This document shows positions 15,872-44,394 of a stretch of DNA of 64,000 bases, one piece after another. Origin of the DNA: Folioceros fuciformis (taxonomy: Eukaryota); NCBI GenBank assembly GCA_049999805.1, contig JBNGIO010005690.1:1-64000 (forward strand). Direction: 5' to 3'. Made by a program: the position numbers and the translations under genes. Each line of letters opens with the position of its first letter. The first letter of the stretch is position 1. Below the pieces are notes generated by a model, which was not told where the DNA came from, searched no databases, and was given only the letters and a program-made list of their open reading frames with translations.

Positions 15872-18685
15872 ATGGCCGTGGCATCTGTCTCCAAGAACAG
15901 ATCGGGCCGATGGTTTCTCCACCGTTCTGCTCTCATCCTCACCGTTTTGCTGAGCTTGACTACCCCGATCGGCAGCCAGAGCGTGAGCCTGTCGATCACA
16001 AACTTCTCCGAGGCTCAGGACTTGCTATTGTGTGAATATCCATGCGTCATCCAAGGCAGCGTTGTCGGCCTGCCGCTCACTGACTTGCAGCACAGCGCAG
16101 CCAGGGTGATGTACACAAGGCCTGTTCAGTTCTACGATCCTGCTGCGGGGGCCTACGCATCCTTCACCACCTCCTTCCTCCTCACCATCCCATCCGGCTC
16201 GAGCGCGATCGCCGACGGCCTGGCCTTCGTCATCGCGCCCAACATCTCCACCCCGACCGACCCCAGCGCAACAGGAGGCGCGTTGGGTCTCTTCCCAACG
16301 GTGCCGGGAGGATCGGGAGCTCCGTCGGATGGTAGCACGCACCTGGTAGCCGTGGAGTTCGATACCTTCTACGGGAGCGGTGCGGACTCCTGGGACCCGA
16401 ACTACGCTCCTCACGTCGGACTGGACCTCAACAGCCTGAATTCCATAGCTTTGTCGCAGGAGCTGCCGGGAATCAAAGCTGGAAACACGATAAAGGCCTG
16501 GATCGAATACTCGGCTGTGTTCCAGCAGCTGAGTGTGAACATCTCTGTCGCCCAGTCTCCTCACCTGCCCACGCACGCGGATTCGCAGCAGGTGCTGGCT
16601 TTCTCCAGCTTCAATCTCTCTGCCTTCGTGAGGGAGAGATCCTTCNNNNNNNNNNNNNNNNNNNNNNNNNNNNNNNNNNNNNNNNNNNNNNNNNNNNNNN
16701 NNNNNNNNNNNNNNNNNNNNNNNNNNNNNNNNNNNNNNNNNNNNNNNNNNNNNNNNNNNNNNNNNNNNNNNNNNNNNNNNNNNNNNNNNNNNNNNNNNNN
16801 NNNNNNNNNNNNNNNNNNNNNNNNNNNNNNNNNNNNNNNNNNNNNNNNNNNNNNNNNNNNNNNNNNNNNNNNNNNNNNNNNNNNNNNNNNNNNNNNNNNN
16901 NNNNNNNNNNNNNNNNNNNNNNNNNNNNNNNNNNNNNNNNNNNNNNNNNNNNNNNNNNNNNNNNNNNNNNNNNNNNNNNNNNNNNNNNNNNNNNNNNNNN
17001 NNNNNNNNNNNNNNNNNNNNNNNNNNNNNNNNNNNNNNNNNNNNNCCCAGCTTAGTCCCGGTGTCGCCGCCCGCCGCTGCTCCCCAAAGCACGGCTCCCA
17101 GCTTAGTCCCGGTGTCGCCGCCCGCCGCTGCTCCCCAAAGCACGGCTCCCAGCTTAGTCCCGGTGTCGCCGCCCGCCGCTGCTCCCCAAAGCACAGCTCC
17201 CAGCTTAGTCCCGGTGTCGCCGACTGCCGCTGCTCCCCGAAGCCCAGGAGTTGAGCAGCGCCCTCGTTCTGCTGCTCCCGCCGCGGGAAAGAAGCTTGGA
17301 CTTGTATTCGGGGTCGGGCTGCCGATGTTGCTGGCAGCGACCATCTGTTGTGGAAGCTGGTGTTACTGTAGTCAAAGGAAGAGGACGCAATCGAGTCACA
17401 GTCTCCATCTCCCGAAAGCGGGATACGGACCTCGCCGCATCGCCTACGGCCAACTCAAGAAGGCCACCTGCAATTTCAGAACCGTGCTAGGGGAGGGCGG
17501 CTTCGGGTCTGTGTACAAGGGAGTCATGGCAGATGGGGGTTTCGTAGCGGTGAAGAGGATCAAACGGCGTTCCAAGAATGGAGAGAAACAGTTCGTCGCG
17601 GAGGTAGACCTAAATCCGTCTGGTCTGATTTTCACAACTGCACTCTGAATGGTTTTTTTGTGATGAATAACAAGCAGATTTTGTGTGCGCTGCGGTATCG
17701 TAGGTGACGAGCATCGGGCAGCTGAGCCACAAGAATGTGGTCCCGCTCAGAGGATGGTGCGCAGAGCACGAGGAGCTGCTGCTGGCGTATGAGTACATGC
17801 CTAACGGTAGTCTTGACAGGCACCTCTACCCTACAAAGGACGACAGCCAGCTTGACCTGGAGGAACTGGCAGTAGGAACTGGTTTGGATTGGGGGACGAG
17901 GGTTAGCATAATACAGGGGGTGGCGGATGCTCTGTGTTACCTGCATCGAGGGTGGCAGCAGGCAGTGATACACAGGGACATCAAACCCAGCAACATCATG
18001 TTGGATGCCAGCTTTGTTCCTCGAGTGGGTGATTTCGGGCTGGCAGTTGCTATGAACAAGGACAAGCTGTTCCAAACAATTACGGCCGCGGCAGGTACTG
18101 TGTTGGACGATATAGGTTGCGTGTGGATAAGCATGACCTTGGCATGAGAGCTTTGTAGGTTTGTCAAGCTAACCTTGGGTGGATGGACTGGCAGGGACGG
18201 CGGGGTACTTAGCTCCAGAATGCCACGAGAAGTTCAAAGTGGGGGCGGAATCGGACGTGTTCAGCTTCGGAGTGATGGTCCTGGAGATGGTGTGTGGGCG
18301 GAAACCAATGGATTGGCGTAGGCCGCACAAGGAGTATCATCTTGTGACTTGGGTGTGGAGCCTCTACGTGGAAGACGAGAACTCGCTGAGGGATGCAATA
18401 CCCCCGTCCATCAGAGTAGGGTGCGATCCGGAGAAAGCGATGATGCTGTTGCGGCTGGGTCTGATGTGCTCCTTCCCCAATCCCTCAGTCAGGCCCAGCA
18501 TGATTTTGGTGACCCAGTACTTATCAGGATCCCTCCAGCTGCCTGAGCTTCCCAGAGAGGTTCCACCTGCCTTCTGTGAGGCTCCCACAACCGTCGTGGC
18601 AAAACGGTATGCTGCAGACATGGAAGCTTACAACAGTGCAACTAACTCCATAAGTTACTCTGGCACCGACTACAGACCGGCCTGA
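15872..18685 (+). CDS. L-type (legume) lectin receptor-like kinase; exons ~15872-17603 (spans a gap), 17704-18094, 18195-18685
   Basis: Signal peptide; legume lectin motifs (ADGLAFVIAP, VAVEFDTF, HVGLDLNS); Pro-rich stalk; TM LGLVFGVGLPMLLAATICC; kinase motifs GEGGFGSVYKG, VAVKR, HRDIKPSN, DFG, GTAGYLAPE and DVFSFG; frame-consistent GT-AG introns. Continuity across the 400-N gap is assumed. Confidence 0.92.
17046..17240 (+). repeat. Coding 51-bp tandem repeat (PSLVPVSPPAAAPQSTA), at least 3.5 copies, running into the gap
   Basis: Near-identical copies visible. Confidence 0.93.
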
Positions 18686-22849: not shown

Positions 22850-25528
22850 AGTGGTGGCTGAAGGATGGCCACAGTATGGCAACCGGGCCGGTTGTGGACC
22901 CAACAAAATGGTGTCTGTACAAGGATTCCAAGAGGAGCTCCCGCTCACTCCAATTCTGGCAGTGAATGCCCGGCAACCAACCAAGCCTGTAGGTGTAAGA
23001 GTGGAAGAAGCCCACCACTTTCACTTCTGAGAAAATGCGTGGATGGGAAGGGATTTTCCAGCGATGGTCGTCGCAAGGAGCAGGAGCACTTGTGGAAACA
23101 GTTCTTTCTGGAGCCTACCATGTGGTGGGACAACAGACGAGATAAGAAGAGCTCCCGTGCGCCTGACTCCAGGCGGAAGGGATTTCGCAAGATCCTGTGG
23201 TCAAATAGCTTCTCTAGGCCAGGTTGGGTTGTAGAGCAGCTCGTGTCCTTGGATGTGCAGATAGGTCATGGTAGGTCCTTCCAGGTCGAGTTTTTTCGGA
23301 AGATCCTGAACCCGGCAGGCCAGAAGGATCTGGAATTTGGTCCTTGAGCGGCAGTGTTGGGAGCCCAGCGCTTTCCCTTGAAGGTGAATGTGTGGATGGG
23401 GATCGCCAGGAGTGGGAGCACTTGTTTCAGCAATGTTTCCTGGACCCTACGGTGCGGTGGGACGACATATGAGAGAAGAGCTGTCGTTCGCCTGAATTTC
23501 GGCGTAAGGGGTCCGGTGAGGTCCTGAGATTGAACAACAAGTCTAAGCCAGGTTGGATGGATGGGCAGCTCGTACGTTGAATGTGCAGATGGGTTGCGGT
23601 GCCTTACCTTCCAAGTCGAGCTCTCAGGATAAGCCTGAACCTGGCAGGCGTGAAGGGTCGGGAATGAGTGTCGTCCCGGCTGGAACCGTGAACATATCAT
23701 GTCAGCAGGGGAAGCTTTCTGAGGCCGTTGAAGCCCTGGAATCTCTGGCGCAGACAGGCTCCATGTGTTTCACTGTGCTGAAACTGTGAGCAGGTGAGAA
23801 GCATTTGGTCATGGGGCGACAAGTTGATGATCTGGCTGTCAAACTTCGGTACGATTCGAATGCATGTTCGGTGAATCATATCGTGCGCATGTATGCATCT
23901 GGAGGTAGGCTAGACGAGGCCATGGATGTGCTCACTAGGGTGGACAAACAAGATGTCTTCATGTGGTCTTCCATAATCTCTGTATATGCTAAGCACGGGA
24001 AACCTAGGGAGGCTATCCAACTGTAACGGGATATGCCCATGTCAGGGGTGGTGGCGAATGCCCCCGTCTTTGTAGCGACCCTTCTAGCTTGTGCACTTGC
24101 CAGCGACTTGGAATCTGGCAGAAAATTGCGTGGTGAGGTGTCGCACAGTGGCATCCCGACTGACTCGTTTGTTGGCAACTGCTTGGTGCACATGTATCCA
24201 AAACGTGGGGAACTGAAAGATGCAAGCCAGGTTTTTGACAGCATTGCTGGCCACGAAGGATGTGGTGACACGGAATGCTCTTATATCTGGGGATGCAAAA
24301 TGTGGTGCGATGAAAGATGCATGCCAGGATTTTGACAGCATGAGCACGAAGAATGTGGGGACACGGAATGCCCTGATAGCTGGGTATGCCGAGCAAGGGC
24401 TTGGACATGAGGCTCGTGTTTTGTAAGGGCAAATGGAGCAGGAGGGGCTAATTTGGGCCAACAATGTTAGTTTCGCTTGCTTTCTATTGCCTGTGGAAGC
24501 GCCGGTGGCTTACAGAGGGGCAGGGAGCTGCACTCACAGATTGTGGAAAGAGGACTGCTGGATAACGTTGTTTTGGGCACTGGCCTGGTAGACATGTATG
24601 CAAAATGTGACGAACTGGAGGATGCACGCCAGTTGTTCGACAGCATGAAGACACAGAATGTGGCGACATGGAATGCCCTGGGTATGGAACTTTTGATGAT
24701 GGTGAGAGAGCACTAGCTGGTTTTCAGTAATATTAGTTGCCGGCATTCTGCCTGATGGTGCTACTTTTAGTTGCCTTCTAGTGGCGTGCAGTCATGAGGG
24801 ACTGGTGGAGGAGGGTCGCAAGCTCTTTCATTCCGTGCCTGAACAGCATGGCATCGATCCTACAACTGAGCATTGCAATTGCATGATTGATCTCTCCGGG
24901 CGTGCAGGCCATCAAAGAAATGTTGTGGGCGAGAGGTCTTTTTTGAATGCCTGCAGAAATCACGGGGATATAGAGACTGAGGGCAATAAGGTGTTTTGAG
25001 AGAATTGTCAAGCTGGACCCCCAGCGAGCGTCTGCCTACGTCCTCATGGCCCATGACTATGCAGATGCAGACGCCGGTAGGTGGACCGATGTAGACTTGA
25101 TTGAAACACAGAGAAAGGCAGCAGGAGCGAGCAAGAAACTTGCAGTGCCAAGCATTGAGGTGAGGAAGGTGGTACATACATTTGCGATGGGAGAAAACAG
25201 AGATGATATTGCGCTCAAGGTAGGTAGAGTGCACGAATGCACTTCTGAAGCAGGAAGGAGGCCACGTACCTAACACAAAGTGGGAGTTGAATCCACTACC
25301 TGAGAAGGAAAAGGAAGGTGTCATTTCTGGGAATGCGGAGAAGCTAGCTCTGGCGTTTGGTCTCTTGAACACCCCAGCTGGAACGCCTATGGTGGTAACG
25401 AAGAACCTACGCATGTGCACGCACAGAAATTATGTCAAGGCTTGTATACAAAGTCATTGTTGTAAGGGATGGGTATCGTGTGCATCGATTCACAAATGGT
25501 TGTTGCAGTTGTAATGGTCGACCCTTAG
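22850..25528 (+). pseudogene. PLS-type PPR gene with N-terminal PDF-like motifs and a C-terminal DYW:KP (GRP-ending) domain, disrupted
   Basis: PPR fragments (DVFMWSSIISVYAKHG, LVDMYAKC, ACSHEGLVEEG, EHCNCMIDLSGRAG), followed by KKLAVPSIEV, GNAEKLALAFGLLNTPAGTPMVVTKNLRMC and VVRDGYRVHRFTNGCCSCNGRP; several stops and frameshifts. Confidence 0.88.
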
Positions 25529-32543: not shown

Positions 32544-35500
32544 TCAGCGTGCCTGCAGTAGTGATCTTCCTCTCCGTGACGAGGCCATCTGTGGCACATA
32601 TCCATCGTTCTGCGTTTTCAGAAACACTTGCTCTATCTTTCCTGGACCGTCGGGATGCCTCTTATCCCGAACCAAAAATCTGTGGCCAACGCCGTCGACG
32701 TCTGTCCACCAGCTCTGGCCCGGCTGCTTCCATGCCCTCATTCTTTTCCTCCTCTCCTGCATCTCCTGTGCCTGCTCCCACATTTGGGCACCCAAGTATA
32801 TGTTTGACATCGACACGTACGCTGCAGCGTTTTTTTCGTCTAGCTTCACTGCTTGCTCGAAAGCGTGAAGTCCAACCTCCACGTTGCCCCACTTTCGGCA
32901 AGCACCCAGCAGAGTGTGCCAGACTGCAGCACTGGGAGGTCCTGGCATTGTCCTTGCCAAAGCTAGTCCCTCATCCAGTTGGCCTGCACGACCCAGGAGG
33001 TCTACCATGCACGTGTAGTGTTCCACGGTGGGTTTGATGCCGTAATGTTTGCTCATTGATGCGAAGTATTCCCTCCCCTTCCTAACTAGACCCGCATGGC
33101 TGCATACCGTTAGTACACTAAGGAATGTGATGCCCACTGGTTGAATCCCGTCCTCTCTCATTTCTCGCACCAAGTTGAACACCACGTCACTATCTCCTTG
33201 AAAGGCGTAGCCTGCAATCAGTGCACTCCATGTGACAACGTCTCTGTGAGGCAATGCATCAAACACGCGCTGTGCAGCAACCATGCTCCCGCATTTTCCA
33301 TACATGTTAATCAAACTGCTGGCTACAACCGTATCAGCTTGGAGTCCTTGCCGCTTTACCTGTAGGTGCAGCTGTCTTCCCAGATGCAAAGCGGCTACAT
33401 TTGCACATGCCTGTAGGAGGCACATAAATGTCACCGAATTTGGTAGCGCAACGCTCTCCATTTGCATTGCACTGTAAAGCCGAAAGGCTTCCTGGCACAT
33501 TCCCTGCTGAGTATACCCAGCGATCATGGCATTCCATGTGACCAGGTCTTTTCGGCCAAGTCTATCAAACACCAGACGCGCGTCTTCTAGGCTTCCACAC
33601 TTTGCGTACATGTTTACCAAACTACTGGCTACGAACATGTCAGCTTGGTGTCCTCGTTTGGTAATTTGTACGTGAAGCTGCTTGCCCTTCTTCAGGGCTG
33701 GGGAGCCCAGATTTGCACATGCCTGTAGGAGGCACACAAATGTCACGGAATTGGGTATGCACATGCCTTCTTCTTGCATAGCATTGTACAGACCAAGAGC
33801 TTCCTGGGCCATGCCCAGGTGGGAATACCCCGCGATCATGGCATTCCATGTCACCACGTCTTTTTGACGGAGTCCATCAAACACGCTCTGAGCGTCTTCC
33901 AAGCTACCACACTTGGCATACATGTTCACCAAACTGTTGGCTACGAATCGATCTGCTTCATGTCCTTGTTCTCGAACTTGAGCATGAAGCTGCTTCCCCA
34001 TTTCCAGAGCTGTTTCGCCCACACTTGCACATGCCTGCAGGAGGCTCACAAACGTTACGGAATTGGGCACAGCAATGCCTCCTTCTTGCATAATATTGTA
34101 CTGGCGGAGGGCTTCCTGGCCCATGCCCTGCTGGGAAAGTCCTGCTATCATGGCATTCCATGTCACATTATCTTTTTGATCAAGTCCGTCGAAAAGTCCC
34201 TGAGCATCTGCTACGCTTCCACACTTTGCATACATGTTCACCAAACTGCTGGCTACAAACTCGTCAGCTATATGTCCTCGGTCTCTAATCCGTTCATGAA
34301 GCTCCTTTCCTATTCCCAAAGCTGGGACGCCCACACTTGCACAGGCCTGCAAGAGGCATACATAAGTGACAGAGTCAGGTTCAACCATCGCTTCTTCTTG
34401 CATAGCGCTGTAGAGACGGAGGGCTTCGCTCCCCATGCCCTGCTGGGAATAGCCTGCTATTAGCGCATTCCATGTCACCACATCCTTTTGACCAAGTTCG
34501 TCAAACACCCTTTGAGCGTCTTCCAAGCTACCACACTTTGCATACATGTTTACCAGACTGTTAGCTACAAACACATCAGCCTGGTAGCCTTGCTCTCTAA
34601 TGTCTAAATGAAGCTGCTTTCCATTCTCCAAAGCTGCAGTGCCCACACTTACACATGCCTTCAGGAGGCAGACAAATGTCACCGAAGTGGGAAAAGCAAT
34701 GCCTTCCCTTTGCATAGCACTGTAAAGACCAAGGGCTTCCTGGCCCATGCCCTGCTGGGTATATCCTGTTATCATGGAATTCCACGTCACAGCATCTTTT
34801 CTACTCAGTCCGTCGAAGACTCTTTGAGCGTCTTTCAGGCTGCCACACTTTGCATACATGTTTACCAAGCTATTGGCTATAAATGCATCAGCCTGGTATC
34901 CCAGTTTTCTAAGTTGTGCATGAAGCTGCTTCCCCTTCTTCAAAGCTGGGGTGCCCACACTTGCGCATGCCTGCAGGAGGCACACAAAGGTCACAGAATC
35001 GGGTACAGCAATGCCTTCATCTTGCATAGCGCCGTAGAGTTGAAGGGCTTCCTGACCCATGCCCTGCTGGGCATACCCTGCAATTAGAGCAGTCCATGTC
35101 ACCACATCTTTTGCACTAAGTCTATCAAACACTGTTTGAGCGTCCTCCAAGCTGCCGCACTTGGCATACATGTTCACCAGACTACAGGCTACCACGACAT
35201 CAGCCTGATGACCGTGTTCTCTAATTTGAGCATCCAGCTGTTTCCCCATCTTCAAAGCGGAGGGACCCACACTTGCACAGGCCTGCAGGAGGCATAGATA
35301 CGTAACGGAATCAGGTATAGTCATGCCTTCTTCTTGCATGAGACTGTACAGGCGAAGGGCCTCCTGCCCCATGCCCTTCAGAGAATACCCTGCTATTAGA
35401 GCATTCCAACTCGTGACATCTTTTTGGCCAAGACCGTCGAATAATCTTTGAGCATCTTCCAAGCTGCCACACTTTGCATACATGTTCACAAGACTATTAC

Positions 35501-37112
35501 TAATAATCACATCACCCTGGTGTCCTCCGTCTCTAATTTGTGTGTGTAGCTGCTTCCCTGTCTCCAGCGCTGGGGAACCCAGACTTGCACATGCCTGCAG
35601 AACGGAGACAAATGTGACAGAATTGGGAAGAGCCTTACCATCTTCTCGCATAGCAGAATAAAGATGAAGGGCTTCCTGACCCATTCCCTGCTGGGAATAT
35701 CCTGCAATCAAAGCAGTCCATGTGACCACATCTTTTTTATCAAGTCTGTCGAACACTCTGTGACCATCAACTAGGCTGCCACACTTTGCATACATATTCA
35801 CCAGACTGCTGGCCACAAACATATCAGATAGAAATCCTTGTTCTGTGATTTGCAAATGAAGCTGCTTCCCCTTGTCCAAGGCAGGAGCGCCGGTAGTTGC
35901 ACAGGCCTTCAGGAGGCGCACAAAAGTCACAGAATCCGGCACAGCTATGCCTTCTTCTTGCATAGCACTGTAAATACGAAGGGCTTCCTGGCCCATCCCC
36001 TGTTGTGAATACCCTGCAATCATGGCAGTCCACATCACCACATCTTTTTGGACAAGTCCATCAAAAGCAGATTGAGCGTCTGCCAAACTGCCGCACTTTG
36101 CGTACATGCTCACCAAACTGCTAGCTACAAACACATCAGCTTCATGTCCTCGTTCTCGAAGTTGTGCATGAAGCTGCTTCCCTGTCTCCAACGCTGGGGT
36201 GCCCACACTTGCACATGCCCGCAGGAGGCACATAAATGTCACGCCATTGGTTACAGCAATTCCTTCATCTTGCATAGCACTGTAGAGGTGAAGGGCTTCC
36301 TGGCCCATGCCCTGCTGAGAATAGCCTGCTAATAGAGCTGTCCAGGTGACGACGTCTTTCTGAGCAAGTCCATCAAACACTCGTTGTGCATCTTTCAAGC
36401 TACCACACTTTACATACATGTCCACCAAGCTACTACAAACGAACAAATGACGCTCAACGCCACTCGCCAGAATATCAGCATGCACCTGCTCCCCTGTTTT
36501 CAGGTCTGCTCCCTTTCCACATGCCTGAAGGGCTGCCACAAACACATGCCCATCTGGCTTCACACCAGACCGGCGCATGCGTTGATAAAGTTCTATGGCC
36601 TGCTTGTTCTGCCCCCGTCTAACATGCGCAGAAATTATGGCAGACCAAAGGAAGACATTTGGTTCAGGAAACACTGCAAACACATCCATTGCGTCTTGCA
36701 ACCTACCATGAGAAGCATACATTCGGATGAAATGATTGCCCAGGAACGAGTCCCCCTGATACCCCTTTCTCACCGACAAAGCATGAACTCGACGACCCAA
36801 AACCAGATCCTTCTTTCCAGAACATTTCGTCACAACTGTATTAAACAGGGATTTGGAGATAAAACTGCCTGTCCGCACCAGAACTCCCAAAGCCTCCACA
36901 GCCTCAGTAAGATGGTCCTCATGGCAAAGCCTGATCACTTCTTCTGCAGTTACGCCCCTTTCAAATCCTTCAGACCTGGGAGGATTGGCATCATCCGGCA
37001 AGCTCCATTTCGCAACAAAGGTACGCCAACCCATCAATCGTCCCGGTGCGTGACATGAGTCATTCTGCTTCCCGATGGTCTTCTGCAAGCTTCCGCAGAG
37101 GTACATCCTCAT
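32544..37112 (-). CDS. Giant PLS-class PPR protein (1522 aa, ~13 PLS triplets, E domains, truncated WW-type C-terminus); likely organellar RNA-editing factor
   Basis: Intact single-exon ORF with repeated P-L-S motifs, then CSHAGLV, HYTCMVDLLGRAG, WKQPGQSWWTD and GYVP; no HxE/CxxC deaminase motif. Confidence 0.95.
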   Translation of the reverse strand: MRMYLCGSLQKTIGKQNDSCHAPGRLMGWRTFVAKWSLPDDANPPRSEGFERGVTAEEVIRLCHEDHLTEAVEALGVLVRTGSFISKSLFNTVVTKCSGKKDLVLGRRVHALSVRKGYQGDSFLGNHFIRMYASHGRLQDAMDVFAVFPEPNVFLWSAIISAHVRRGQNKQAIELYQRMRRSGVKPDGHVFVAALQACGKGADLKTGEQVHADILASGVERHLFVCSSLVDMYVKCGSLKDAQRVFDGLAQKDVVTWTALLAGYSQQGMGQEALHLYSAMQDEGIAVTNGVTFMCLLRACASVGTPALETGKQLHAQLRERGHEADVFVASSLVSMYAKCGSLADAQSAFDGLVQKDVVMWTAMIAGYSQQGMGQEALRIYSAMQEEGIAVPDSVTFVRLLKACATTGAPALDKGKQLHLQITEQGFLSDMFVASSLVNMYAKCGSLVDGHRVFDRLDKKDVVTWTALIAGYSQQGMGQEALHLYSAMREDGKALPNSVTFVSVLQACASLGSPALETGKQLHTQIRDGGHQGDVIISNSLVNMYAKCGSLEDAQRLFDGLGQKDVTSWNALIAGYSLKGMGQEALRLYSLMQEEGMTIPDSVTYLCLLQACASVGPSALKMGKQLDAQIREHGHQADVVVACSLVNMYAKCGSLEDAQTVFDRLSAKDVVTWTALIAGYAQQGMGQEALQLYGAMQDEGIAVPDSVTFVCLLQACASVGTPALKKGKQLHAQLRKLGYQADAFIANSLVNMYAKCGSLKDAQRVFDGLSRKDAVTWNSMITGYTQQGMGQEALGLYSAMQREGIAFPTSVTFVCLLKACVSVGTAALENGKQLHLDIREQGYQADVFVANSLVNMYAKCGSLEDAQRVFDELGQKDVVTWNALIAGYSQQGMGSEALRLYSAMQEEAMVEPDSVTYVCLLQACASVGVPALGIGKELHERIRDRGHIADEFVASSLVNMYAKCGSVADAQGLFDGLDQKDNVTWNAMIAGLSQQGMGQEALRQYNIMQEGGIAVPNSVTFVSLLQACASVGETALEMGKQLHAQVREQGHEADRFVANSLVNMYAKCGSLEDAQSVFDGLRQKDVVTWNAMIAGYSHLGMAQEALGLYNAMQEEGMCIPNSVTFVCLLQACANLGSPALKKGKQLHVQITKRGHQADMFVASSLVNMYAKCGSLEDARLVFDRLGRKDLVTWNAMIAGYTQQGMCQEAFRLYSAMQMESVALPNSVTFMCLLQACANVAALHLGRQLHLQVKRQGLQADTVVASSLINMYGKCGSMVAAQRVFDALPHRDVVTWSALIAGYAFQGDSDVVFNLVREMREDGIQPVGITFLSVLTVCSHAGLVRKGREYFASMSKHYGIKPTVEHYTCMVDLLGRAGQLDEGLALARTMPGPPSAAVWHTLLGACRKWGNVEVGLHAFEQAVKLDEKNAAAYVSMSNIYLGAQMWEQAQEMQERRKRMRAWKQPGQSWWTDVDGVGHRFLVRDKRHPDGPGKIEQVFLKTQNDGYVPQMASSRRGRSLLQAR

Positions 37113-37420
37113 TTCAACAAAACCATGCAGATGAACCCGAATTTCACATGACGGAAACTTAATTCAATCGGCTGGAGCGCATGCTTTGACGAGGTGAATA
37201 GCCTGGAGTTCATCCTCCACTCTAAAGACTTTATTCTCTGATCCTCTACAGAGCTCCATCGTCATCGATGAGTCGATCCACTAAAACCCAACACTATATG
37301 AGCAACTTTTGCAAACAGACAATTGCTTGAGTGAGGGGCTTCCTTTGAGCGAATTCCTGGTGATACCGTCGGGCTCGTTGTTGAGAGGTGCCATGACCTC
37401 TGCTCACGCTCCTGCGAGGC

Positions 37421-40400
37421 ATGGCTGCCTCAAAATGTGCAGGCATTCGAGGACGAGCTGGTTCTGGCCTCATCTCTGGGAACCAAGCGTTGGGGACCTT
37501 CAAGGAATACGTGAGGTGGAGCAACACCTTTGTAAGCAACACAGGCCGCGCAGGAGAACGTGTGGGTAGAGACGGATCTTCCAGGGAGGGTCGTCGGCAG
37601 GAGCTACTTTGGGACCCCACTCTCGGGTGGGACAAGCGGCGGGATAAGAGGAGCCTCCGTTCGCCTGAATTTCGGCACACGCAGTCACAGGATGTCCTCT
37701 GCCTGAACGACAGGCACGAGCCAGCTTGGGTGGATGTGGAGCTTGCTGCTTTGGAAAGGAAGGTGGGTCGTGCTGATGCTGGCAGGCCTGCAGGATACGA
37801 AAGTTGCGGAACGGATGACACCGTGAGCAGATTGTGCCATCAGGGCCGTCTCAGAGAGGCTGTGGATGCTCTGGAGATTCTGGTGGAGACAGATTGCTCG
37901 ATTCCAAAGTCCCTGTTTTATGCTCTGGTGAAGAAGTCGGTGCTGAAAAAGGACCTTGTTCTGGGTCGGCGCGTACATGCTTGTACGGTGAAGAAGGGAT
38001 TTCAGTCAGACACGTTCCTGTGCAACCACATCATGCGGATGTACGCTTCCCATGGCAGGTTGCAAGATGCGATGGATGTGTTTGCAGTGGTTGAGGAGCC
38101 AGATGCCTTCATGTGGTCGTCAATTATCTCTGCCCATGTGAAGCACGGACGAGTCAAAGCAGCCATGGAGTTGTATCGCGAAATGGGCAGGTTGGGTGTG
38201 AAGCCAGATGGGCATGTGTTTGTGGCGGCCCTTCAGGCGTGCGCAAGGGGAGGAGACTTGAAAGCTGGGCACCAGGTGCATGCCGATGTGTTGGCCAGTG
38301 GGATCGAACCTGATTTGTTTGTTTGTAACTGTCTGCTGGATATGTATGCAAAGTGTGGTAGCTTGGAAGACGCTCAAAGATTTTTTGATGGACTGGGCAA
38401 GAAAGATGTGGTGACTTGGACTGCCTTAATTGCCGGGTATGCCCAGCAGGGCATGGGGCAAGAAGCCCTCCGTCTGTTCGGTGCTATGGAAGAGGAAGGA
38501 ACCGCTGTACCCAATTCGGTGACATTTATGTGCCTCTTGCAGGCTTGTGCAAGCGTGGGTGAGCCCGCTTTGGAGATGGGGAAGCATCTTCATGTTCAAA
38601 TCATAGATGGAGGTCATCAAGCTGATGTATTTGTGGCCAGCAGTTTGGTCAACATGTACGCAAAATGCGGCAGCCTAGAGGACGCTAAGGCTGTGTTTGA
38701 TGCACTCGGCGAGAAAGACATCGTGACGTGGACTGCCATGATAGCAGGGTATTCCCAAAAGGGCATGGGTCAGGAAGCTCTAAGCGTCTACGATGCTCTG
38801 CAAGAAGAAGGCCTTTTCGCACTTGATTCTATGACGTTTGTGCGCCTCCTGCAGGCATGTGCAAGTGTTGGCACAACAGCTCTGCAGACAGGGAAGCAGC
38901 TTCACGAGCAAATAAGACAGCAAGGACATCATGCTGATGTCTTCGTAGCCAATAGTTTGGTGAACATGTATGCAAAGTGTGGCAGCCTGGTAGACACTCG
39001 CAGAGTGTTTGACGGGCTTTGTAAAAAGGATGTGGTAACATGGAATGCCATGATGGCAGGGTATTCTCAGCAGGGGATGTGCCAGGAAGCCCTTAGTCTC
39101 TACCGCTCTATGCAAGAAGATGGCATGGTGATTCCTGATTCTGTTACGTTTGTGTGCCTCTTGCAGGCATGTGCAAGTGTAGGTAACAATGCTTTGGCGT
39201 CAGGGAAGCAGGTTCATACAGAAATCAGAGATCAAGGACACCAAGCTGATATGTTTGTAGCAAACAGTTTGGTAAACATGTATGCAAAGTGTGGCAGCTT
39301 GGAAGACGCCAGAAGAGTGTTTGACGAACTAGATCCGAAGGATGTGGTCACCTGGAATTCTCTAGTTGCAGGGTATTGCCAGCAGGGGATGGGCCAGGAA
39401 GCCCTTGATCTCTACACTGCCATGCAAGAGGGAGACTTGGCTGTACCCAACTCTGTGACATTTGCAAGCCTCCTCCAGGCATGTGCAACTGTTGGCACCC
39501 GAGCATTGGAGACAGGGAAGCAACTTCACGTACAAATTAGGGCACGTGGATATCAAGCTGATGTGTTCGTGGCCAACAGCTTGGTTAACATGTATGCGAA
39601 ATGTGGCAGCTTGGAAGACGCTCTCAACGTTTTTGACAGACTGGGTCAAAAAGATGTCGTGACTTGGACAGCCCTAATTGCAGGATATTCCCAGCAAGGC
39701 ATGGGCCAGGAAGCCCTTGATCTCTACGATGCTATGCAAAAGGAGGGCTTGGCTGTCCCCAATTCTGTGACATTCCTGTGCCTGTTGCAGGCATGCGCAG
39801 GTGTCGGAAACACAGCATTGGAGAAGGGAAAGCAGCTTCATACGCAACTTAGAGAACGAGGACTTCAAGTTGATGTTTTGTTAGCAAACAGTCTGGTGAG
39901 CATGTATGCAAAGTGTGGCAGCTTGACAGATGCTCAAAGAGTGTTCGACAAACTTTGTGAAAAGGACGTGATCACATGGACCTCGATGATAGCAGCGTAC
40001 TCCCATGTGGGCATGGGCCAAGAGGTCCTTCGTCTCTACAGTTCTATGCAAGAAAATGGCACGGTGTTACCTGATTCCGTGACATTGGCGTGCCTCCTGC
40101 AGGCTTGTGCAAATGTGGGCTCTCCAGCGTTGGAGATGGGAAAGCATCTTCATGCTCAAATTAGGAATGGCGTTGAGGAGGCTGATATGTTTCTAGCCAG
40201 CAGCTTGGTCAACATGTATGCAAAGTGTGGCAGCTTAGAAGGTGCTCAGAGCGTGTTTGAGAGACTCGGTCAAAAAAATGTGGTGACCTGGAATGCCATG
40301 ATAGCCGGATATTCCCAACAGGGGATGGGCCAGGAGGCCCTCGATCTCTACAGTGCAATGCAAGAAGAGGGCATCACGGCACCTGATTCTGTGACATTTG

Positions 40401-41572
40401 TGTGCCTCCTGCTGGCATGTGCAATTGTGGGCAACCCAGCTTTGGAGATGGGGAAGCAGCTTCATGCCCAAATTCGAGAACAAGGTTATCTTGTTGATGT
40501 TTTTGTATCCAACAGTTTGGTAAACATGTACTCAAAGTGTGGCAGCCTGGAAGACGCCCACCGAGTGTTTGATGGGCTCAAGGCTAAAGATGTGGTGACA
40601 TGGAATGCCATGATAGCAGGGTACTCTCAGCGAGGCATGGGCCAGAAAGCTCTTCATCTCTACCGTGACATGAAAGAAGAATGCATTGCGCCACCCAATT
40701 CTGTGACGTTTGTGTGCCTGCTGCAGGCATGTGCCGACTTGGCAGCTTTGCATCTGGGAAGGCAGGCACACGCACAGATTGAAGAACAAGGACTCCAATC
40801 TGATCTTTTTGTCGCGTGCAGTTTGATAAACATGTATGGCAAGTCCGGAAGCATCGCTGATGCACAGCAGGTATTTGATGCACTACCCGCAAAAGATGTT
40901 TTCGCCTGGAGTGCACTGACTGCTGGCTACGCCTGTCTAGGAGACAGTGAAATGGTCTTTGACTTGGTGCGGAGAATGAGAGATGACGGGATACAACCAG
41001 TCGGCATCACATTCCTTAGTGTTCTGACGGTCTGCAGCCATGCAGGTCTAGTAAACAAGGGGAGGCATTACTTTCAGGGCATGACCAGAGACTATGGCAT
41101 AGAGCCCACAATGGAGCACTACACATGCATGGTTGACCTCCTGGGCCGCTCAGGCCTCCTGGATGAAGCTCTAGCCTTGGTGAGGACAATACCTGTACCG
41201 CCCTCTGGTGCAGTTTGGCACACTCTATTGAGTGCTTGTCGAAACTGGGGCAACGTTGAGGTGGGCCGCCTTGCTTTCAACCAAGCGGTCTTGTTAGACA
41301 ACTCGGATGCTTCATCGTATGTCCTCATGTGGAGCATATACACCGGTGCTCAGATGTGGGTGCAGGCAGACGAGATGCAAGCAAGAAGAATAAGAACCAA
41401 AGCATGGAAGCAGCCGGGTCAGAGCTGGTGGACGGACATGGACGGTCTTGTGCATAGCTTTGTGGTGGGAGATCAAAAGAGCTCCAAACGTGAAGCAAGG
41501 CTAGACCTTGTGCTGCCAAAGTTTGAAAACGAAAGGCCTGTGTCACGTGTGAGCTGTCCAGCCGATGTTTGA
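37421..41572 (+). CDS. Giant PLS-class PPR protein (1383 aa, ~11 triplets, E domains, WW-type end) with an N-terminal PDF-like motif
   Basis: Intact single-exon ORF with 312-bp triplet periodicity and WKQPGQSWWTD; N-terminal WDPTLGWDKRRDKRSLRSPEFRH...VLCLN...PAWV. Confidence 0.95.
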   Translation: MAASKCAGIRGRAGSGLISGNQALGTFKEYVRWSNTFVSNTGRAGERVGRDGSSREGRRQELLWDPTLGWDKRRDKRSLRSPEFRHTQSQDVLCLNDRHEPAWVDVELAALERKVGRADAGRPAGYESCGTDDTVSRLCHQGRLREAVDALEILVETDCSIPKSLFYALVKKSVLKKDLVLGRRVHACTVKKGFQSDTFLCNHIMRMYASHGRLQDAMDVFAVVEEPDAFMWSSIISAHVKHGRVKAAMELYREMGRLGVKPDGHVFVAALQACARGGDLKAGHQVHADVLASGIEPDLFVCNCLLDMYAKCGSLEDAQRFFDGLGKKDVVTWTALIAGYAQQGMGQEALRLFGAMEEEGTAVPNSVTFMCLLQACASVGEPALEMGKHLHVQIIDGGHQADVFVASSLVNMYAKCGSLEDAKAVFDALGEKDIVTWTAMIAGYSQKGMGQEALSVYDALQEEGLFALDSMTFVRLLQACASVGTTALQTGKQLHEQIRQQGHHADVFVANSLVNMYAKCGSLVDTRRVFDGLCKKDVVTWNAMMAGYSQQGMCQEALSLYRSMQEDGMVIPDSVTFVCLLQACASVGNNALASGKQVHTEIRDQGHQADMFVANSLVNMYAKCGSLEDARRVFDELDPKDVVTWNSLVAGYCQQGMGQEALDLYTAMQEGDLAVPNSVTFASLLQACATVGTRALETGKQLHVQIRARGYQADVFVANSLVNMYAKCGSLEDALNVFDRLGQKDVVTWTALIAGYSQQGMGQEALDLYDAMQKEGLAVPNSVTFLCLLQACAGVGNTALEKGKQLHTQLRERGLQVDVLLANSLVSMYAKCGSLTDAQRVFDKLCEKDVITWTSMIAAYSHVGMGQEVLRLYSSMQENGTVLPDSVTLACLLQACANVGSPALEMGKHLHAQIRNGVEEADMFLASSLVNMYAKCGSLEGAQSVFERLGQKNVVTWNAMIAGYSQQGMGQEALDLYSAMQEEGITAPDSVTFVCLLLACAIVGNPALEMGKQLHAQIREQGYLVDVFVSNSLVNMYSKCGSLEDAHRVFDGLKAKDVVTWNAMIAGYSQRGMGQKALHLYRDMKEECIAPPNSVTFVCLLQACADLAALHLGRQAHAQIEEQGLQSDLFVACSLINMYGKSGSIADAQQVFDALPAKDVFAWSALTAGYACLGDSEMVFDLVRRMRDDGIQPVGITFLSVLTVCSHAGLVNKGRHYFQGMTRDYGIEPTMEHYTCMVDLLGRSGLLDEALALVRTIPVPPSGAVWHTLLSACRNWGNVEVGRLAFNQAVLLDNSDASSYVLMWSIYTGAQMWVQADEMQARRIRTKAWKQPGQSWWTDMDGLVHSFVVGDQKSSKREARLDLVLPKFENERPVSRVSCPADV

Positions 41573-42369
41573 ATCGATCATGATGTCTTTCCATCGCATT
41601 TCAGAGATCGCATCCAGCACATTCAGTGATATGTACATCTCACCGCCGAACAGAGTGAGGGTGAACTTCAGGCTTAGAGAGAGCGGTTCCTTCCATCCTG
41701 AGACGAGGTGGCTGTTGAGCTCTGCAAGTAGGAAGCATGGAACGGATATGGGCATTTATGGGTGGTGAGCGTAACTTAAGTTACACTTCTCGACCGCTCC
41801 GACAATACAGTACAGTACAGATGCCACCAATGTAATGAAGAACGCATCTTCTGGTCGGACCTTCTGGTGTTTTCGCGCACAGAGTATGTACCTGCATACA
41901 TCTGAACAATTGTACGTAGGCCTGCTTAATAAGGTTTACAGGACAATTTACGGCCGTTTGAATTAGCTGGCATCTCCTCACCCTGTCTCAATCTCCCGCT
42001 CAATTCGTGCACTTCACGCCTCCTGGTCTGCAAAATTGAACGATAGCAGCGGCCTTGCTCAAAATTCAGTCTTGTTTCTGATGAGGCATTTGCGTCCACA
42101 GCCTGTCTGGTTTGCGCTCCTTTGGACTATAGTGGAATTTGAATCGGTGCTCCATTTGCGGACCTGACAGTCTGGAGATTTGCAGCCATTTGATGCCGTG
42201 AAGGTGATTGTGGTCCATGCACGGACAATTTTCGTGGAGAAGCTACCGTCTAGCCTGCGTAAGGTCTGTGTTTTGTCATTTGCTTGAGATCGGAGGTTCA
42301 TGCAGCCCCTCTTTCTCAATTCTCACCACTTTCACTGTAGTGCAGAGTGGCATTTTGGAGGTCTGGAGG

Positions 42370-44394
42370 ATGAAGTCTAATGTCGTCTTCCGCATTTTTG
42401 CTATCCTCGGGTTGTATCAACTTTTCGCCACCTTGTCACCGGCCATATGTCACTTACAGGCATCGACAAGGGGGGCGGATGGAAAGAAACAAGGTGCGAC
42501 GACACCAGCCATGGGTCCTACGCAAGGGCTGGCAGCGATGGCAAGTACGACGCAAAGGGGAGGATTTCCAGCGACCGCTACGGCACGGCGTCCGAGGGGA
42601 ACGGCGAGGGCAAACATGCCAACAGCGGAACTGCTGGCTATTGTTCCTGGACGAAGTACAGCACCGGAGAGAAGGACGCGAAGTGGAGGATCACCAATTG
42701 TTGCTCCGGCACCACTCTCAACAGGACGGTGCAGTACACCAGCAGTAGGATCGCCGGCCATAATTCCTGCACAAGGTTCGGCAGGGATTGCAGGCAACAC
42801 AGCAACGTGGAGGTCACTAGCCATGGCTCCAGACCTAGCTCCCGGACTGAGTCCGACCGAGGTTTACGCGAGTATGGATCCTGCTGAACGACAGGCCCTG
42901 TTCGCCGTGATGAATGCTATGGCGGAGGGAGAAGACTGGTCTACAACTCATCCGGATGCTTGTGGTGAAGGCATCTGGCACGGTCTCGAGTGTTCTGGGC
43001 CGCTTGACTCGGATCCTGATCTGCATGTCGTCACTCTGACTTTCGGGCTTCTCAATCCCTTGGATCCGAACCCGGCTTGCAGATATGATGCATACATTCC
43101 AAATGATATTGAGCAGCTGACCTTTCTCGAGAATCTCCTCATATTCGGCTGCTTTGTGCACACTGAGACAACGCTTCCGAGCTCACTTGGACGGCTAACA
43201 TCGCTGGAGATAATCGACATGCGAAATAATTCGAAACTTGTGGGTCCCATCCCGTCTGAGCTTGGTAACCTTCCCAACCTTCAGGTATATTTCCACCGAT
43301 CTCTAAACCTCTAGAACCTGCCGCCTAGCTGAATCGGGTCTTTTTGGCTGGGATGGATTCTTTGTCTGAGTAGGGAATTTAGACCTGAACGATTCCTCTC
43401 ACGTGCTCGATACTGCAATGGACAGGCCCTCAACCTCCTCCTGAACGGCATATCAGGGAGAATTCCGGAGCTCAGGAACTTGCAGTCTCTAGAAGAATTG
43501 GATCTCAGCTATAACAATCTAAACGGGCCTATCCCTCCGTCTGTTGGCCAGCTTAGCATGCTGCAGATTCTGAGTCTCCGAGGCAACCAACTTCAAGGTC
43601 TCATTCCATCGACTCTAGGTGAACTGAAGAATCTCAAGAAACTGGATTTGGGGGAGAACGAACTGCAGGGATCACTGCCAAGATCTTTAGGGGACCTTTC
43701 TTTTCTAATTCTTCTTGCCGTCGACAACAACAAGCTGATACATGGTCTGCCAGAGTCCTTTGGCAACCTGGTCAGCTTGCAATATCTGATTGCGCACGGC
43801 AATCCGATGCACAGTAGGCTGCCGGCGTTCTGGGGGAAGATGGGAGATAACTTGGTTTACTTATCCCTCGCCAACTCGTCTTACAATGGCTCCATTCCGG
43901 GTTCTATTGGCGACATCGGTAACCTTACGTATGTGGGTCTGAACGACAACGAGCTAACAGGAGAAATTCCTGAGGAATTTGAAAACCTCAGCCAGCTGTC
44001 TTTGTTAAACTTGAGCGGGAACAACCTATCTGGTCCTGTTCCGTTTTCGGCTGCTTTCCTTGACAATCTTGGTTCTGGTCTGATCTTGGACCATAACCCA
44101 GCTTTATGTGAGCTGCCATCATCGAAGACTACACCGACTGGAAAGTTGAGACTTCGTCCGTGTACAGAATCTGATGGTACTTATCCCAACCCTTGGGCGC
44201 CGCCGAGTCCTGCTCCTCACGCTGCAATGCCAAGTATTGCAACTCCATCCAACGACAACCAGAAGACGCCTGAAAGCAACAACCGAATTTCCAGTGCTCA
44301 GTGCAGCTCAGTCTTCCAAGCAGGCATTGCAATACTCCTCACGCCTTGCTTAAGCCTGCTTCATATTTATGATTTGGCTTCTTTTCCACTTTGA
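42370..44394 (+). CDS. LRR receptor-like protein (TMM/RLP29/PII-2-like clade); exons 42370-43284, 43426-44394
   Basis: Signal peptide MKSNVVFRIFAILGLYQLFATL, Ala/Pro/Thr-rich region, N-cap DWSTTHPDAC...WHGLEC...HVVTLTFG...NPAC, LRRs, hydrophobic C-terminus and a phase-0 GT-AG intron. Confidence 0.9.

Follow-up and report, generated by a model that had tools for sequence, protein, structure and literature searches.

Does an organellar-type PPR gene of Folioceros fuciformis encode, ahead of its repeats, a nucleic acid-binding motif of the OSB proteins, and what would such a motif do in a PPR protein? The question is raised by a stretch of 64,000 nucleotides (positions 1 to 64,000 of contig JBNGIO010005690.1; referred to here as the window), in which a preliminary description had noted a giant intact PPR open reading frame (ORF) with an OSB-type "PDF" single-stranded DNA (ssDNA)-binding motif at its N terminus. 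We analyzed the ORF, its motif, its relatives within the window and the proteins that carry the same motif in other plants.

Gene structure and protein class of the 1383-aa ORF

Reading-frame translation of the ORF (37421..41572, forward strand) revealed no internal stops. All 1383 codons are open, and positions 37595 to 37756 (residues 59 to 112) encode exactly the peptide that had been quoted, so the description of a giant intact PPR ORF with an N-terminal motif was confirmed. The features of this ORF and of its relatives in the window are listed in Table 1.

Table 1. Coordinates of the 1383-aa ORF, its parts and the related loci in the window
Feature	Coordinates	Strand	Description or basis
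Degraded locus, PDF motif 1	23081..23251	+	P-D-S for P-D-F; HMM
Degraded locus, PDF motif 2	23383..23571	+	P-E-F; C-terminal half 23.2 bits (HMM)
Degraded locus, remains of PPR array and DYW	23577..25514	+	Several frames with stops; tblastn, Pfam
Head-to-head paralogue, 1522 aa	32544..37112	-	PLS PPR and E motif, no PDF; Pfam, alignment
Intact ORF, 1383 aa	37421..41572 (including stop codon)	+	Leader, one PDF motif, PLS-type PPR array, E motif; no DYW
N-terminal leader, residues 1-58	37421..37594	+	Candidate organelle presequence, from composition
Diverged OSB-type PDF motif, residues 59-111	37595..37753	+	phmmer and profile HMMs
Linker, PDF motif to first PPR-like helix pair	37754..37822	+	
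PLS-type PPR array	37823..41248	+	Pfam and tandem-repeat detection
E motif, residues 1277-1336	41249..41428	+	Pfam PF20431; 47 residues from E motif to ORF end

Pfam analysis of the protein identified PPR_2 (2.3e-155, 16 stretches), PPR (1.6e-136, 20 stretches) and E_motif (PF20431; 6.2e-09, 36.4 bits against a cut-off of 27.3). Within the PPR array, a tandem array was detected at 38342-40734, with a unit of 312 bp (104 codons), 7.7 copies and 72% matches. Neither SSB (PF00436) nor DYW (PF14432) was found among the best 25 of the 32 Pfam families of the protein, the other 7 all having E > 0.033. There was no DYW-like frame in the 630 nt 3' of the stop codon; a DYW domain concealed by a frameshift or an intron was ruled out, as no DYW remnant lies downstream. 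By its domain content, the protein is a PLS-class PPR protein of the E type and falls outside the DYW subgroup. Since it has no DYW deaminase domain, it could by itself serve as a specificity factor and no more.

The ATG is preceded, 8 codons upstream, by an in-frame stop. The second in-frame Met is residue 205, which is already within the PPR array, so that no alternative start preserves the whole array. The reading frame thereby supports the placement of the PDF motif inside the sole plausible coding sequence of an apparently intact PLS-type PPR gene. Residues 1 to 28 of the leader contain four R or K residues and no D or E, with a high content of A, G and S; a possible interpretation of residues 1 to 58 is that they form an organelle presequence.

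An 897-nt contig assembled from a public run matches positions 37184 to 38080 with no differences, spanning the ATG and the whole motif; the kind of library is unrecorded. Being an assembled contig, it gives neither a start nor a strand, and bins 37070-37133 were uncovered in the run.

The motif might lie outside the working protein, in a 5' UTR, in a transit peptide that is cut off, or in a silent or dying gene. Three upstream ATGs (37268, 37298 and 37393) occur in the 237 nt covered by the public contig, and an out-of-frame ORF of 58 codons starts from the one at 37393. A collection of 15 billion proteins does not contain the exact 1383-aa protein, the protein has no DYW domain, and its sister locus is a pseudogene. 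However, a start at Met 205 would behead the PPR array and leave no presequence, and the motif begins at residue 59, past the acid-free part of the leader (residues 1 to 28). The 4.1-kb frame is open, and full-length PDF-PPR relatives likewise have the motif behind a short leader. We consider it highly improbable that the motif is excluded from the protein.

Homology and divergence of the PDF motif

Residues 1 to 128 of the ORF were used as a phmmer query against 1,835,955,588 representative proteins. This search returned 65 matches at E <= 1e-3, 6 of which were at E <= 1e-10 (best, 2.1e-23), and in every one of the 65 the best-matching stretch fell on the part of the query that holds the motif. 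The matches included proteins named OSB3 by their source, from Chenopodium (XP_021726667.1; E = 1e-11) and Euphorbia (WCJ35362.1; E = 4.2e-07), and Pfam SSB was present in 24 of the 65.

Two profile HMMs of the motif were built. The broad PDF HMM comprised 131 motif instances from non-PPR matches (58 model positions), and the strict PDF HMM comprised 93 motifs from 35 matches bearing the OB-fold region of the source-named OSB3 proteins. Against residues 59 to 111, the broad model aligned over positions 6 to 57 of 58 with 39.9 bits (E = 1.2e-14, Z = 1). The preliminary description had held that these residues follow the PDF pattern, and this stood up when they were scored against the OB-fold-linked motifs only, with 33.8 bits (E = 1e-12, Z = 1). 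Over the 1322 six-frame segments of the window, the strict model again recovered residues 59 to 111 (E = 7.1e-10), and the top score in 5000 shuffles of the N-terminal 128 residues was 9.6 bits. On these comparisons, the assignment of residues 59 to 111 as a homologue of the OSB-type PDF motif is statistically secure.

Searches of other kinds were less productive. The word-index search gave no matches for residues 45 to 125 against long proteins and none for residues 1 to 200 among 2208 candidates, and for an Adiantum motif (residues 15 to 85 of P0057) it returned, from 16 candidates, just the motif itself plus two close relatives. The ESM Atlas feature search gave no usable match.

R, G and S are abundant in the leader, and no Pfam family was found in the first 170 residues at E <= 10, as might be expected if the likeness to PDF had arisen by chance in a low-complexity, arginine-rich sequence. 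The Pfam result is unsurprising, because in the 65 PDF-bearing matches Pfam reports SSB, PPR and others but never a motif-specific family. The E-values run from 1e-12 to 2e-23, none of the 5000 shuffles exceeded 9.6 bits, and the 1383-aa protein is collinear with other PDF-PPR proteins. Chance similarity is refuted by phmmer, by both HMMs and by the shuffles, and its probability is close to nil.

The motif of the 1383-aa ORF also had been described as diverged, with P-E-F for P-D-F, and this was evident in the HMM alignment, in the scores and in the alignment of 29 motif rows (A2). In A2, the motif retains 7 of 7 invariant columns with exact spacing. Three near-invariant columns are altered (W to R, D to E and W to C), and a G occupies the first W of the double-W. 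With the broad HMM, the motif scored 40.8 bits against a family median of ~85. This is below all 131 OSB-side motifs (minimum, 58.9), whose scores are inflated because they trained the HMM, and below 12 of the 13 PPR-linked motifs, the exception being one degenerate Diphasiastrum copy. In a tree of the motifs, its terminal branch was 1.0, versus a median of 0.31.

Two further observations count against degeneration. P0062 (401 aa) and the 1383-aa protein are collinear over a stretch that begins at the PDF motif and extends into the PPR array, with 43% identity over 336 columns, and a hand count from the alignment gave ~21 of 43 identical positions in the motif. Motif identity is therefore not clearly below that of the PPR region, which argues for residual constraint and against simple decay. 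P-E-F also is shared with the second motif of a degraded locus in the window; the variant therefore would predate the 1383-aa gene and may be a form that this lineage tolerates. In favor of degeneration, on the other side, are two relatives in the window: a 67%-identical paralogue that does without the motif and a PDF-PPR-DYW locus that has become a pseudogene. Taken as a whole, the sequence of the motif is probably that of a degenerating copy, so that its own functional importance would be modest and its value would be that of a pointer to the PDF-PPR family.

An AF2 model of residues 49 to 128, made with the 29-row alignment, predicted a small helix, hairpin, helix unit with a mean pLDDT of 67.5. 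Because this confidence is moderate, we base no structural argument or fold assignment on the model. When the model was compared with the PDB by Foldseek, there were 12 matches at E <= 10, none of which reached E <= 0.001. A PDB sequence search with the motif peptide gave no matches, and one with the PDF-bearing P0015 gave three (E = 0.53 to 0.65), all outside the motif.

PDF-PPR proteins in the window and in other plants

The 1522-aa paralogue has 67% identity to the 1383-aa protein over 283 residues. Protein similarity starts at residue 118 of the 1383-aa protein and residue 42 of the paralogue, and DNA similarity (73.6% over 360 nt) starts from 37783 and 36978, respectively. No PDF-HMM match was found near the paralogue in any of the six frames, and a PDF remnant upstream of it was thus ruled out.

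The second locus, at 22.9-25.5 kb, is on its reading frames a pseudogene of the PDFx2-PPR-DYW type. Its first motif scored 60.7 bits with the broad HMM (E = 5.3e-18 over the six-frame set) and 56.0 bits with the strict HMM, and its second motif contains an in-frame stop at 23470-23472. The tblastn pieces of this locus fall in frames 3, 1, 3 and 1, with 27 to 48% identity to the intact 1383-aa protein, and 25224-25514 matches Pfam DYW_deaminase (4.5e-14) over model positions 1 to 59 of 93.

The preliminary description had proposed that the fusion might represent a family. Indeed, Pfam identified PPR repeats in 10 of the 65 phmmer matches, a share that is not to be read as a frequency because all 65 were found from one query, residues 1 to 128 of the 1383-aa ORF. 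In all nine of these ten in which the motif could be located, PDF was N-terminal to the PPR array. We provisionally group as PDF-PPR the proteins in which one frame encodes a PDF motif N-terminal to a PPR array, an arrangement that the uninterrupted 1383-aa ORF has. Examples were found in Adiantum capillus-veneris (KAI5076972.1 and KAI5061374.1), Pteridium aquilinum (a transcript ORF), Diphasiastrum complanatum (KAJ7570437.1, with an 11-member cluster), Sphagnum compactum (CAM6033764.1) and Sphagnum jensenii (CAK9868833.1). Among the phmmer matches, the group thus occurs in Sphagnum mosses, one lycophyte and ferns; it is present also in the organism of the window. The S. compactum protein has the order leader, PDF, PPR, E and a complete DYW domain. 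An OSB gene and a PPR gene joined by gene prediction were ruled out by the single uninterrupted ORF here and by the transcript-derived ORFs elsewhere.

The 13 PPR-linked motifs, which were outside the HMM training, had a median of 85.3 bits, versus 85.4 for the OSB-side motifs. In the motif tree, which rests on just 58 columns and in which 7 of 124 branches were starred, 12 of the 13 PPR-linked motifs and all three motifs of the window fell in one 32-row subclade (SH-aLRT, 82). A constrained tree holding 21 PPR-linked motifs together against 79 OB-linked ones was not rejected (p-AU, 0.879, with groups whose final definition was made in knowledge of the tree), and its log-likelihood was 38.2 units above that of the free quick tree.

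The source annotations of the named fusions are "hypothetical," "uncharacterized," "unnamed protein product" or plain "pentatricopeptide repeat-containing." In the literature searched, PDF motifs were nowhere mentioned as parts of PPR proteins and, in agreement with the preliminary description, no functional description of such a fusion was found; subscription papers and supplements, including large PPR catalogues, were outside the reach of the search and may contain one. A term search of the available text of a 2024 PPR review found no occurrence of "PDF," "ssDNA" or "single-stranded DNA" (PMC11897456). Judged from the sequences collected here, PDF-PPR is an old family, undescribed in the searchable literature, with one to three PDF motifs between the leader and the PPR array.

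Proposed role of the PPR-linked motif

Maize PPR4 carries an N-terminal RRM, so its additional module is placed as PDF is here. PPR-SMR and PRORP also are PPR proteins with an added nucleic acid-binding or nuclease domain, and the added domains covered in the available text of the 2024 review are bZIP, coiled-coil, WQQ, SMR and NYN (PMC11897456). All three resemble the PDF-PPR proteins in joining a sequence-specific PPR tract to a second, generic nucleic acid module. Unlike their modules, PDF is short, unrelated to them and known just from OSBs, with a reported preference for ssDNA, and a sequence search gave no solved structure for it. With the PLS-class PPR editing factors of the E/DYW type, the 1383-aa protein shares a long P-L-S array and an E motif; what sets it apart is the PDF motif added on the N-terminal side and the absence of a DYW domain. 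Its PPR/E organization is like that of the 1522-aa neighbor and of the fern, lycophyte and moss relatives.

OSBs are reported to carry their PDF motifs on the C-terminal side of a central SSB/OB-like domain (PMC6963530, PMC4166229, PMC13393729). At least one PDF motif is expected of an OSB, and residues 59 to 111 provide one; this motif of ~50 residues is common to both, as probably is an N-terminal organelle leader. Unlike OSBs, the 1383-aa protein has a single PDF directly upstream of a PPR array, and its motif is off consensus at several conserved positions, P-E-F included. Without an SSB/OB domain, it does not qualify as an OSB. According to two reviews, the PDF motif of Arabidopsis OSB1 suffices for ssDNA binding and binds single-stranded nucleic acid without sequence specificity, OSBs favor ssDNA over RNA, and high-affinity ssDNA binding is described for OSB1 and OSB2 (PMC6963530, PMC4166229). 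OSB2 is reported to be a tetramer (PMC6963530).

As a whole, the data are best explained by an organellar PLS-E PPR protein from the PDF-PPR family whose copy of the motif is degenerating, a reading to which we give about an even chance. The protein would be nuclear encoded, probably organelle targeted, and would serve as a specificity factor for RNA sites, having no deaminase of its own. Since the PPR-linked PDF is kept as well as in OSBs, PDF in this family most likely would have the same activity as that of OSB1, binding single-stranded nucleic acid sequence-nonspecifically. When a PPR array binds RNA, its N-terminal repeats face the 5' end of the RNA, and PDF therefore may be located 5' of the PPR footprint. 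There it could serve as an auxiliary clamp, either on RNA or on the displaced ssDNA of a transcribing nucleoid. The 1383-aa copy has its invariant core and spacing intact, but three of the conserved tryptophans are gone, as is the acidic D. Its binding is probably weak or absent, and the 1383-aa protein therefore would work mainly as an ordinary PLS-E PPR protein.

In the reading that takes up the mechanism of the preliminary description, the motif is fully functional and tethers the PPR protein to ssDNA or the nucleoid, which would make RNA recognition or editing co-transcriptional or place it at R-loops. The ORF is indeed open over its whole length, the invariant columns and spacing of the motif are preserved, the PDF-PPR family holds the motif as strictly as OSBs do, and the PDF of OSB1 is reported to suffice for binding to ssDNA, which OSBs are reported to prefer to RNA. 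However, this copy is the lowest-scoring PDF compared, bar the degenerate Diphasiastrum one. Its three conserved tryptophans are now R, G and C, and a close paralogue, the 1522-aa protein, has no motif. A functional tether in this protein seems to us rather unlikely.

The PPR-linked PDF also might be a protein-protein or oligomerization module, for example, one that recruits partners of an editing complex, and not a nucleic acid binder. E-type PPR proteins depend on partners that supply the deaminase. The tetrameric state reported for OSB2 fits such a role, as would the predicted unit of a helix, a hairpin and a helix, for which none of the 12 listed Foldseek matches was at E <= 0.001. However, the conserved residues are the same in the PPR-linked and the OSB motifs, with equal median scores, which points to the same ligand, and the Sphagnum member with its own DYW domain still retains the motif. 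We regard a partner-binding module as improbable and retain the reading of a nucleic acid-binding family motif that is degenerating in this copy.

A wider proposal is that PDF-PPR proteins constitute an ancient, unnamed class of organellar PPR proteins or editing factors of non-seed land plants, in which PDF would couple RNA recognition to the nucleoid or the nascent transcript and hence make it co-transcriptional. In this full form we hold the proposal to be unlikely. If it were true, the window would show three stages in the loss of the module within one lineage: a gene that is intact but has a worn motif, a paralogue from which the motif is absent, and a PDFx2-PPR-DYW gene that is dead. PPR editing factors and OSBs have been studied well but separately, the former in organellar RNA processing and the latter in organellar genome maintenance. 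The fusion of the OSB ssDNA-binding motif with PLS-type PPR arrays, at least one of which has a full DYW domain, would bridge both machineries and may offer a handle on whether the recognition of editing sites takes place at the nucleoid, on nascent transcripts. The fusion further indicates that PDF is portable between protein contexts and not restricted to OSBs.

The PDF motif of the 1383-residue PPR protein

The preliminary description had recognized, near the N terminus of an intact giant PPR protein, a diverged PDF motif of the kind with which OSB proteins bind single-stranded DNA (ssDNA). Translation of the motif region gave exactly the peptide quoted there. Residues 1-128 were used as a phmmer query against 1,835,955,588 representative proteins. 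This search returned 65 matches at E ≤ 1e-3, six of them at E ≤ 1e-10 (best, 2.1e-23); the best stretch lay over the query's motif region in all 65, and many proteins were matched in 2 to 9 stretches. OSB3 is the source name of two matches, XP_021726667.1 from Chenopodium quinoa (E = 1e-11) and WCJ35362.1 from Euphorbia peplus (E = 4.2e-07). Pfam analysis placed SSB domains in 24 of the 65 and PPR repeats in 10, and found no family specific to the motif among them.

To collect motif instances, we required P-[DE]-[FY], an aromatic-x-[DN]-x-[RKQ] element no more than 22 residues before it, and a context of 50 residues or more. An HMM built from 131 instances in non-PPR matches aligned residues 59-111 to model positions 6-57 of 58 and scored the 1383-residue protein at 39.9 bits (E = 1.2e-14 for a single protein). 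A stricter HMM, limited to 93 instances from the 35 matches that share an OB-fold region with the two OSB3-named proteins, gave the motif 33.8 bits (E = 1e-12; E = 7.1e-10 over the window's 1322 six-frame segments); when residues 1-128 were shuffled 5000 times, the top score was 9.6 bits. The HMM training proteins were themselves found with the window query; the phmmer E values are independent of this. The significant PDF-HMM match confirms the original observation. Nothing usable came from PDB fold and sequence searches or from an AF2 model, which showed a small hairpin between two helices at a mean pLDDT of 67.5.

The protein has a very long PPR array (PPR_2, 2.3e-155; PPR, 1.6e-136 in 20 stretches) and, at residues 1277-1336, an E motif (6.2e-09; 36.4 bits versus a cutoff of 27.3). 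Neither a DYW deaminase nor an SSB domain was found among the best 25 of 32 Pfam families, a separate search of the first 170 residues produced no Pfam match at a threshold as loose as E ≤ 10, and no DYW-like frame was seen in the 630 nt downstream of the stop. It is a PLS-class PPR protein of the E type. We rejected an OSB identity: the PDF motif is common to both, but the window protein has no SSB/OB domain and carries the motif ahead of a PPR array.

The next in-frame methionine, residue 205, is within the array and an in-frame stop lies 8 codons 5' of the main ATG, so the motif belongs to the sole start-to-stop reading that has the whole array. Residues 1-28 (four basic, none acidic) have a composition compatible with an organelle presequence. 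Three upstream ATGs (37268, 37298, and 37393) lie within 37184-37420, which is covered by a public contig; that at 37393 opens an out-of-frame ORF of 58 codons overlapping the main start.

Features of the PDF-PPR neighborhood
Feature	Position	Strand	Details
Legume-lectin-domain ORF	15872-17254	+	
ORF antisense to the lectin ORF	16025..17344	-	439 aa
LRR-repeat locus	21101-22603	+	flanks PDF-PPR loci
Degraded PDF-PPR locus	22862-25514	+	~14 kb upstream of intact gene; two PDF motifs, short PPR array, DYW fragment
Degraded locus, motif 1	23081-23251	+	60.7 bits; reads P-D-S
Degraded locus, motif 2	23383-23571	+	in-frame stop at 23470-23472
Degraded locus, DYW fragment	25224-25514	+	Pfam DYW_deaminase, 4.5e-14
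Head-to-head neighbor	32544..37112	-	1522 aa; PLS with E motif
Tandem array in neighbor	33397-36428		312 bp, 9.7 copies
ORF across leader and PDF motif	37294-37821	-	175 aa; noted as a reading frame only
PDF-bearing PPR ORF	37421..41572	+	1383 aa, uninterrupted
PDF motif region	37595-37756	+	residues 59-112
Tandem array in PDF-bearing gene	38342-40734		312 bp, 7.7 copies; within PPR array
LRR-repeat locus	42208-44394	+	flanks PDF-PPR loci
Further PPR ORF	45977-47557	-	526 aa; no PDF match

PDF-PPR proteins in other plants

The suggestion of a PDF-PPR fusion family was borne out. In all nine PPR-bearing matches located by BLAST, every PDF motif precedes the array. The architecture recurs in ferns, namely Adiantum capillus-veneris (KAI5076972.1, a one-motif protein of 801 aa; KAI5061374.1, with two PDF motifs) and Pteridium aquilinum (a transcript ORF), in Diphasiastrum complanatum (KAJ7570437.1, a two-motif protein of 1140 aa whose cluster comprises 11 isoforms or alleles), and in Sphagnum jensenii (CAK9868833.1) and Sphagnum compactum (CAM6033764.1, 564 aa), where the order is leader, PDF, PPR, E, and a complete DYW domain. 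In five short phmmer matches grouped at first count as non-PPR (P0027, P0040, P0049, P0055, and P0065), a PPR array begins directly after the motif; one is source-named "pentatricopeptide repeat protein," and others cluster with Sphagnum proteins. The best phmmer match (P0002, unnamed, 1371 aa) has three PDF motifs ahead of its array. Another unnamed match (P0062, 401 aa), whose own motif is canonical (78.7 bits), shows collinearity with the window protein that starts at the motif and extends across the first PPR repeats (336 columns, 43% identical). Since motif and array share one uninterrupted ORF here and occur together in transcript-derived ORFs elsewhere, an artifact of merged gene models was rejected.

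Other matches showed further arrangements: nine PDF repeats and little besides (P0003, 719 aa), an OB region surrounded by twelve PDF motifs (P0018, 1160 aa), an OSB-like protein bearing an extended coiled-coil-like tail (P0036), and an OB region with five PDF motifs (P0004, from a MAG source-named Sanguina aurantia). For Chlamydomonas, the available parts of two papers conflict on the presence of PDF motifs or OSB genes (PMC4166229 versus PMC13393729).

A motif tree (127 rows, 58 columns; 20 of the 131 non-PPR rows removed beforehand as >80% identical) was poorly resolved, with 7 of 124 inner branches starred. One 32-row subclade (SH-aLRT, 82) held 12 of 13 PPR-linked motifs and all three window motifs. 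With groups refined after inspection of the tree (21 PPR-linked and 79 OB-linked rows, 27 unknown left out), the free tree required five label changes. A tree in which the 21 PPR-linked motifs were kept together could not be rejected (p-AU, 0.879); it exceeded the free quick search by 38.2 log-likelihood units. This is consistent with, although not proof of, a single origin of the PPR-linked motifs.

The author of the preliminary description knew of no functional account of such a fusion, and our searches of open full texts found no PPR protein described as carrying a PDF motif; the original OSB1 publication, paywalled articles, or supplementary files may mention one. Neither "pentatricopeptide" nor "fusion" occurs in the accessible part of a 2026 survey of 182 OSB genes (PMC13393729). 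The accessible part of a 2024 PPR review names other added domains and mentions neither PDF nor ssDNA (PMC11897456).

Preservation of the window copy

For the 13 PPR-linked motifs, none of which had trained the OSB-side profile, the median score with that profile was 85.3 bits (12 of 13 at 71.7-91.8). The 131 OSB-side motifs had a median of 85.4 bits and scored no lower than 58.9, values that are inflated because these motifs are the training rows. The window copy scored 40.8; the one motif with a lower score (32.0) was the first copy in the Diphasiastrum protein, which is degenerate. In a 29-row alignment the window copy retains all seven invariant columns, has R, E, and C at columns occupied by W, D, and W in at least 90% of rows, and carries G in place of the first W of the double-W. 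In the 127-row tree, its end branch is 1.0 (median, 0.31), compared with 0.42 and 0.62 for the two motifs of the degraded locus.

The head-to-head neighbor is 67% identical at the protein level, and the two genes lie 308 nt apart. Protein similarity begins at residue 118, just past the motif (residue 42 of the neighbor), and DNA similarity (73.6% over 360 nt) begins at 37783 / 36978; no PDF profile match was found in any frame near the neighbor's 5' end. Because homology ends just 3' of the motif, the neighbor, an inverted duplicate, is without it, and a close paralogue thus does without the PDF motif. The tandem arrays of the two genes (72 to 74% matches; one unit equals 104 codons) suggest that both PPR arrays grew through internal unit duplication. 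At the degraded locus, PPR pieces are scattered over several frames, and the stops and frame changes mark it as a pseudogene; its first motif is nevertheless better preserved than that of the intact gene. This neighborhood tells the same story as the wear of the window motif.

That the copy has diverged is therefore clear; that it is decaying is less certain. The low score, long branch, and lost tryptophans favor decay. Against simple decay speak the intact motif spacing, the identity to P0062 within the motif (~21 of 43 by manual count, not clearly below that of the PPR part), and the P-E-F variant, which recurs in the pseudogene's second motif and so predates the intact gene. On balance, three missing conserved tryptophans, a long branch, a paralogue devoid of the motif, and a dead sister locus make it seem more probable that binding is impaired than that the copy is fully functional.

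Possible role of the motif

The available parts of two reviews state that the OSB1 motif is sufficient for ssDNA binding and that OSBs favor ssDNA over dsDNA or RNA (PMC6963530, PMC4166229). Beyond the demonstrated homology, position, family distribution, and relative divergence, PPR-linked motifs most likely bind a ligand of the same kind, as they keep the residues of OSB motifs. When a PPR array binds RNA, its N-terminal repeats point to the 5' end, so an N-terminal PDF motif would lie 5' of the PPR footprint. Placed there, it could clamp single-stranded RNA; alternatively, it might clamp non-template DNA at a transcribing nucleoid. Of the fusion as first proposed, the true motif in an intact PPR ORF, the family, and the divergence stand, and the coupling of RNA recognition to ssDNA or nucleoid binding is hypothetical. 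We regard a PDF-PPR protein as a PLS PPR protein carrying an accessory motif derived from OSB proteins, and the window gene as a diverged member of the group. The value of the finding is moderate to high for the PDF-PPR family and modest for the worn copy in this window.
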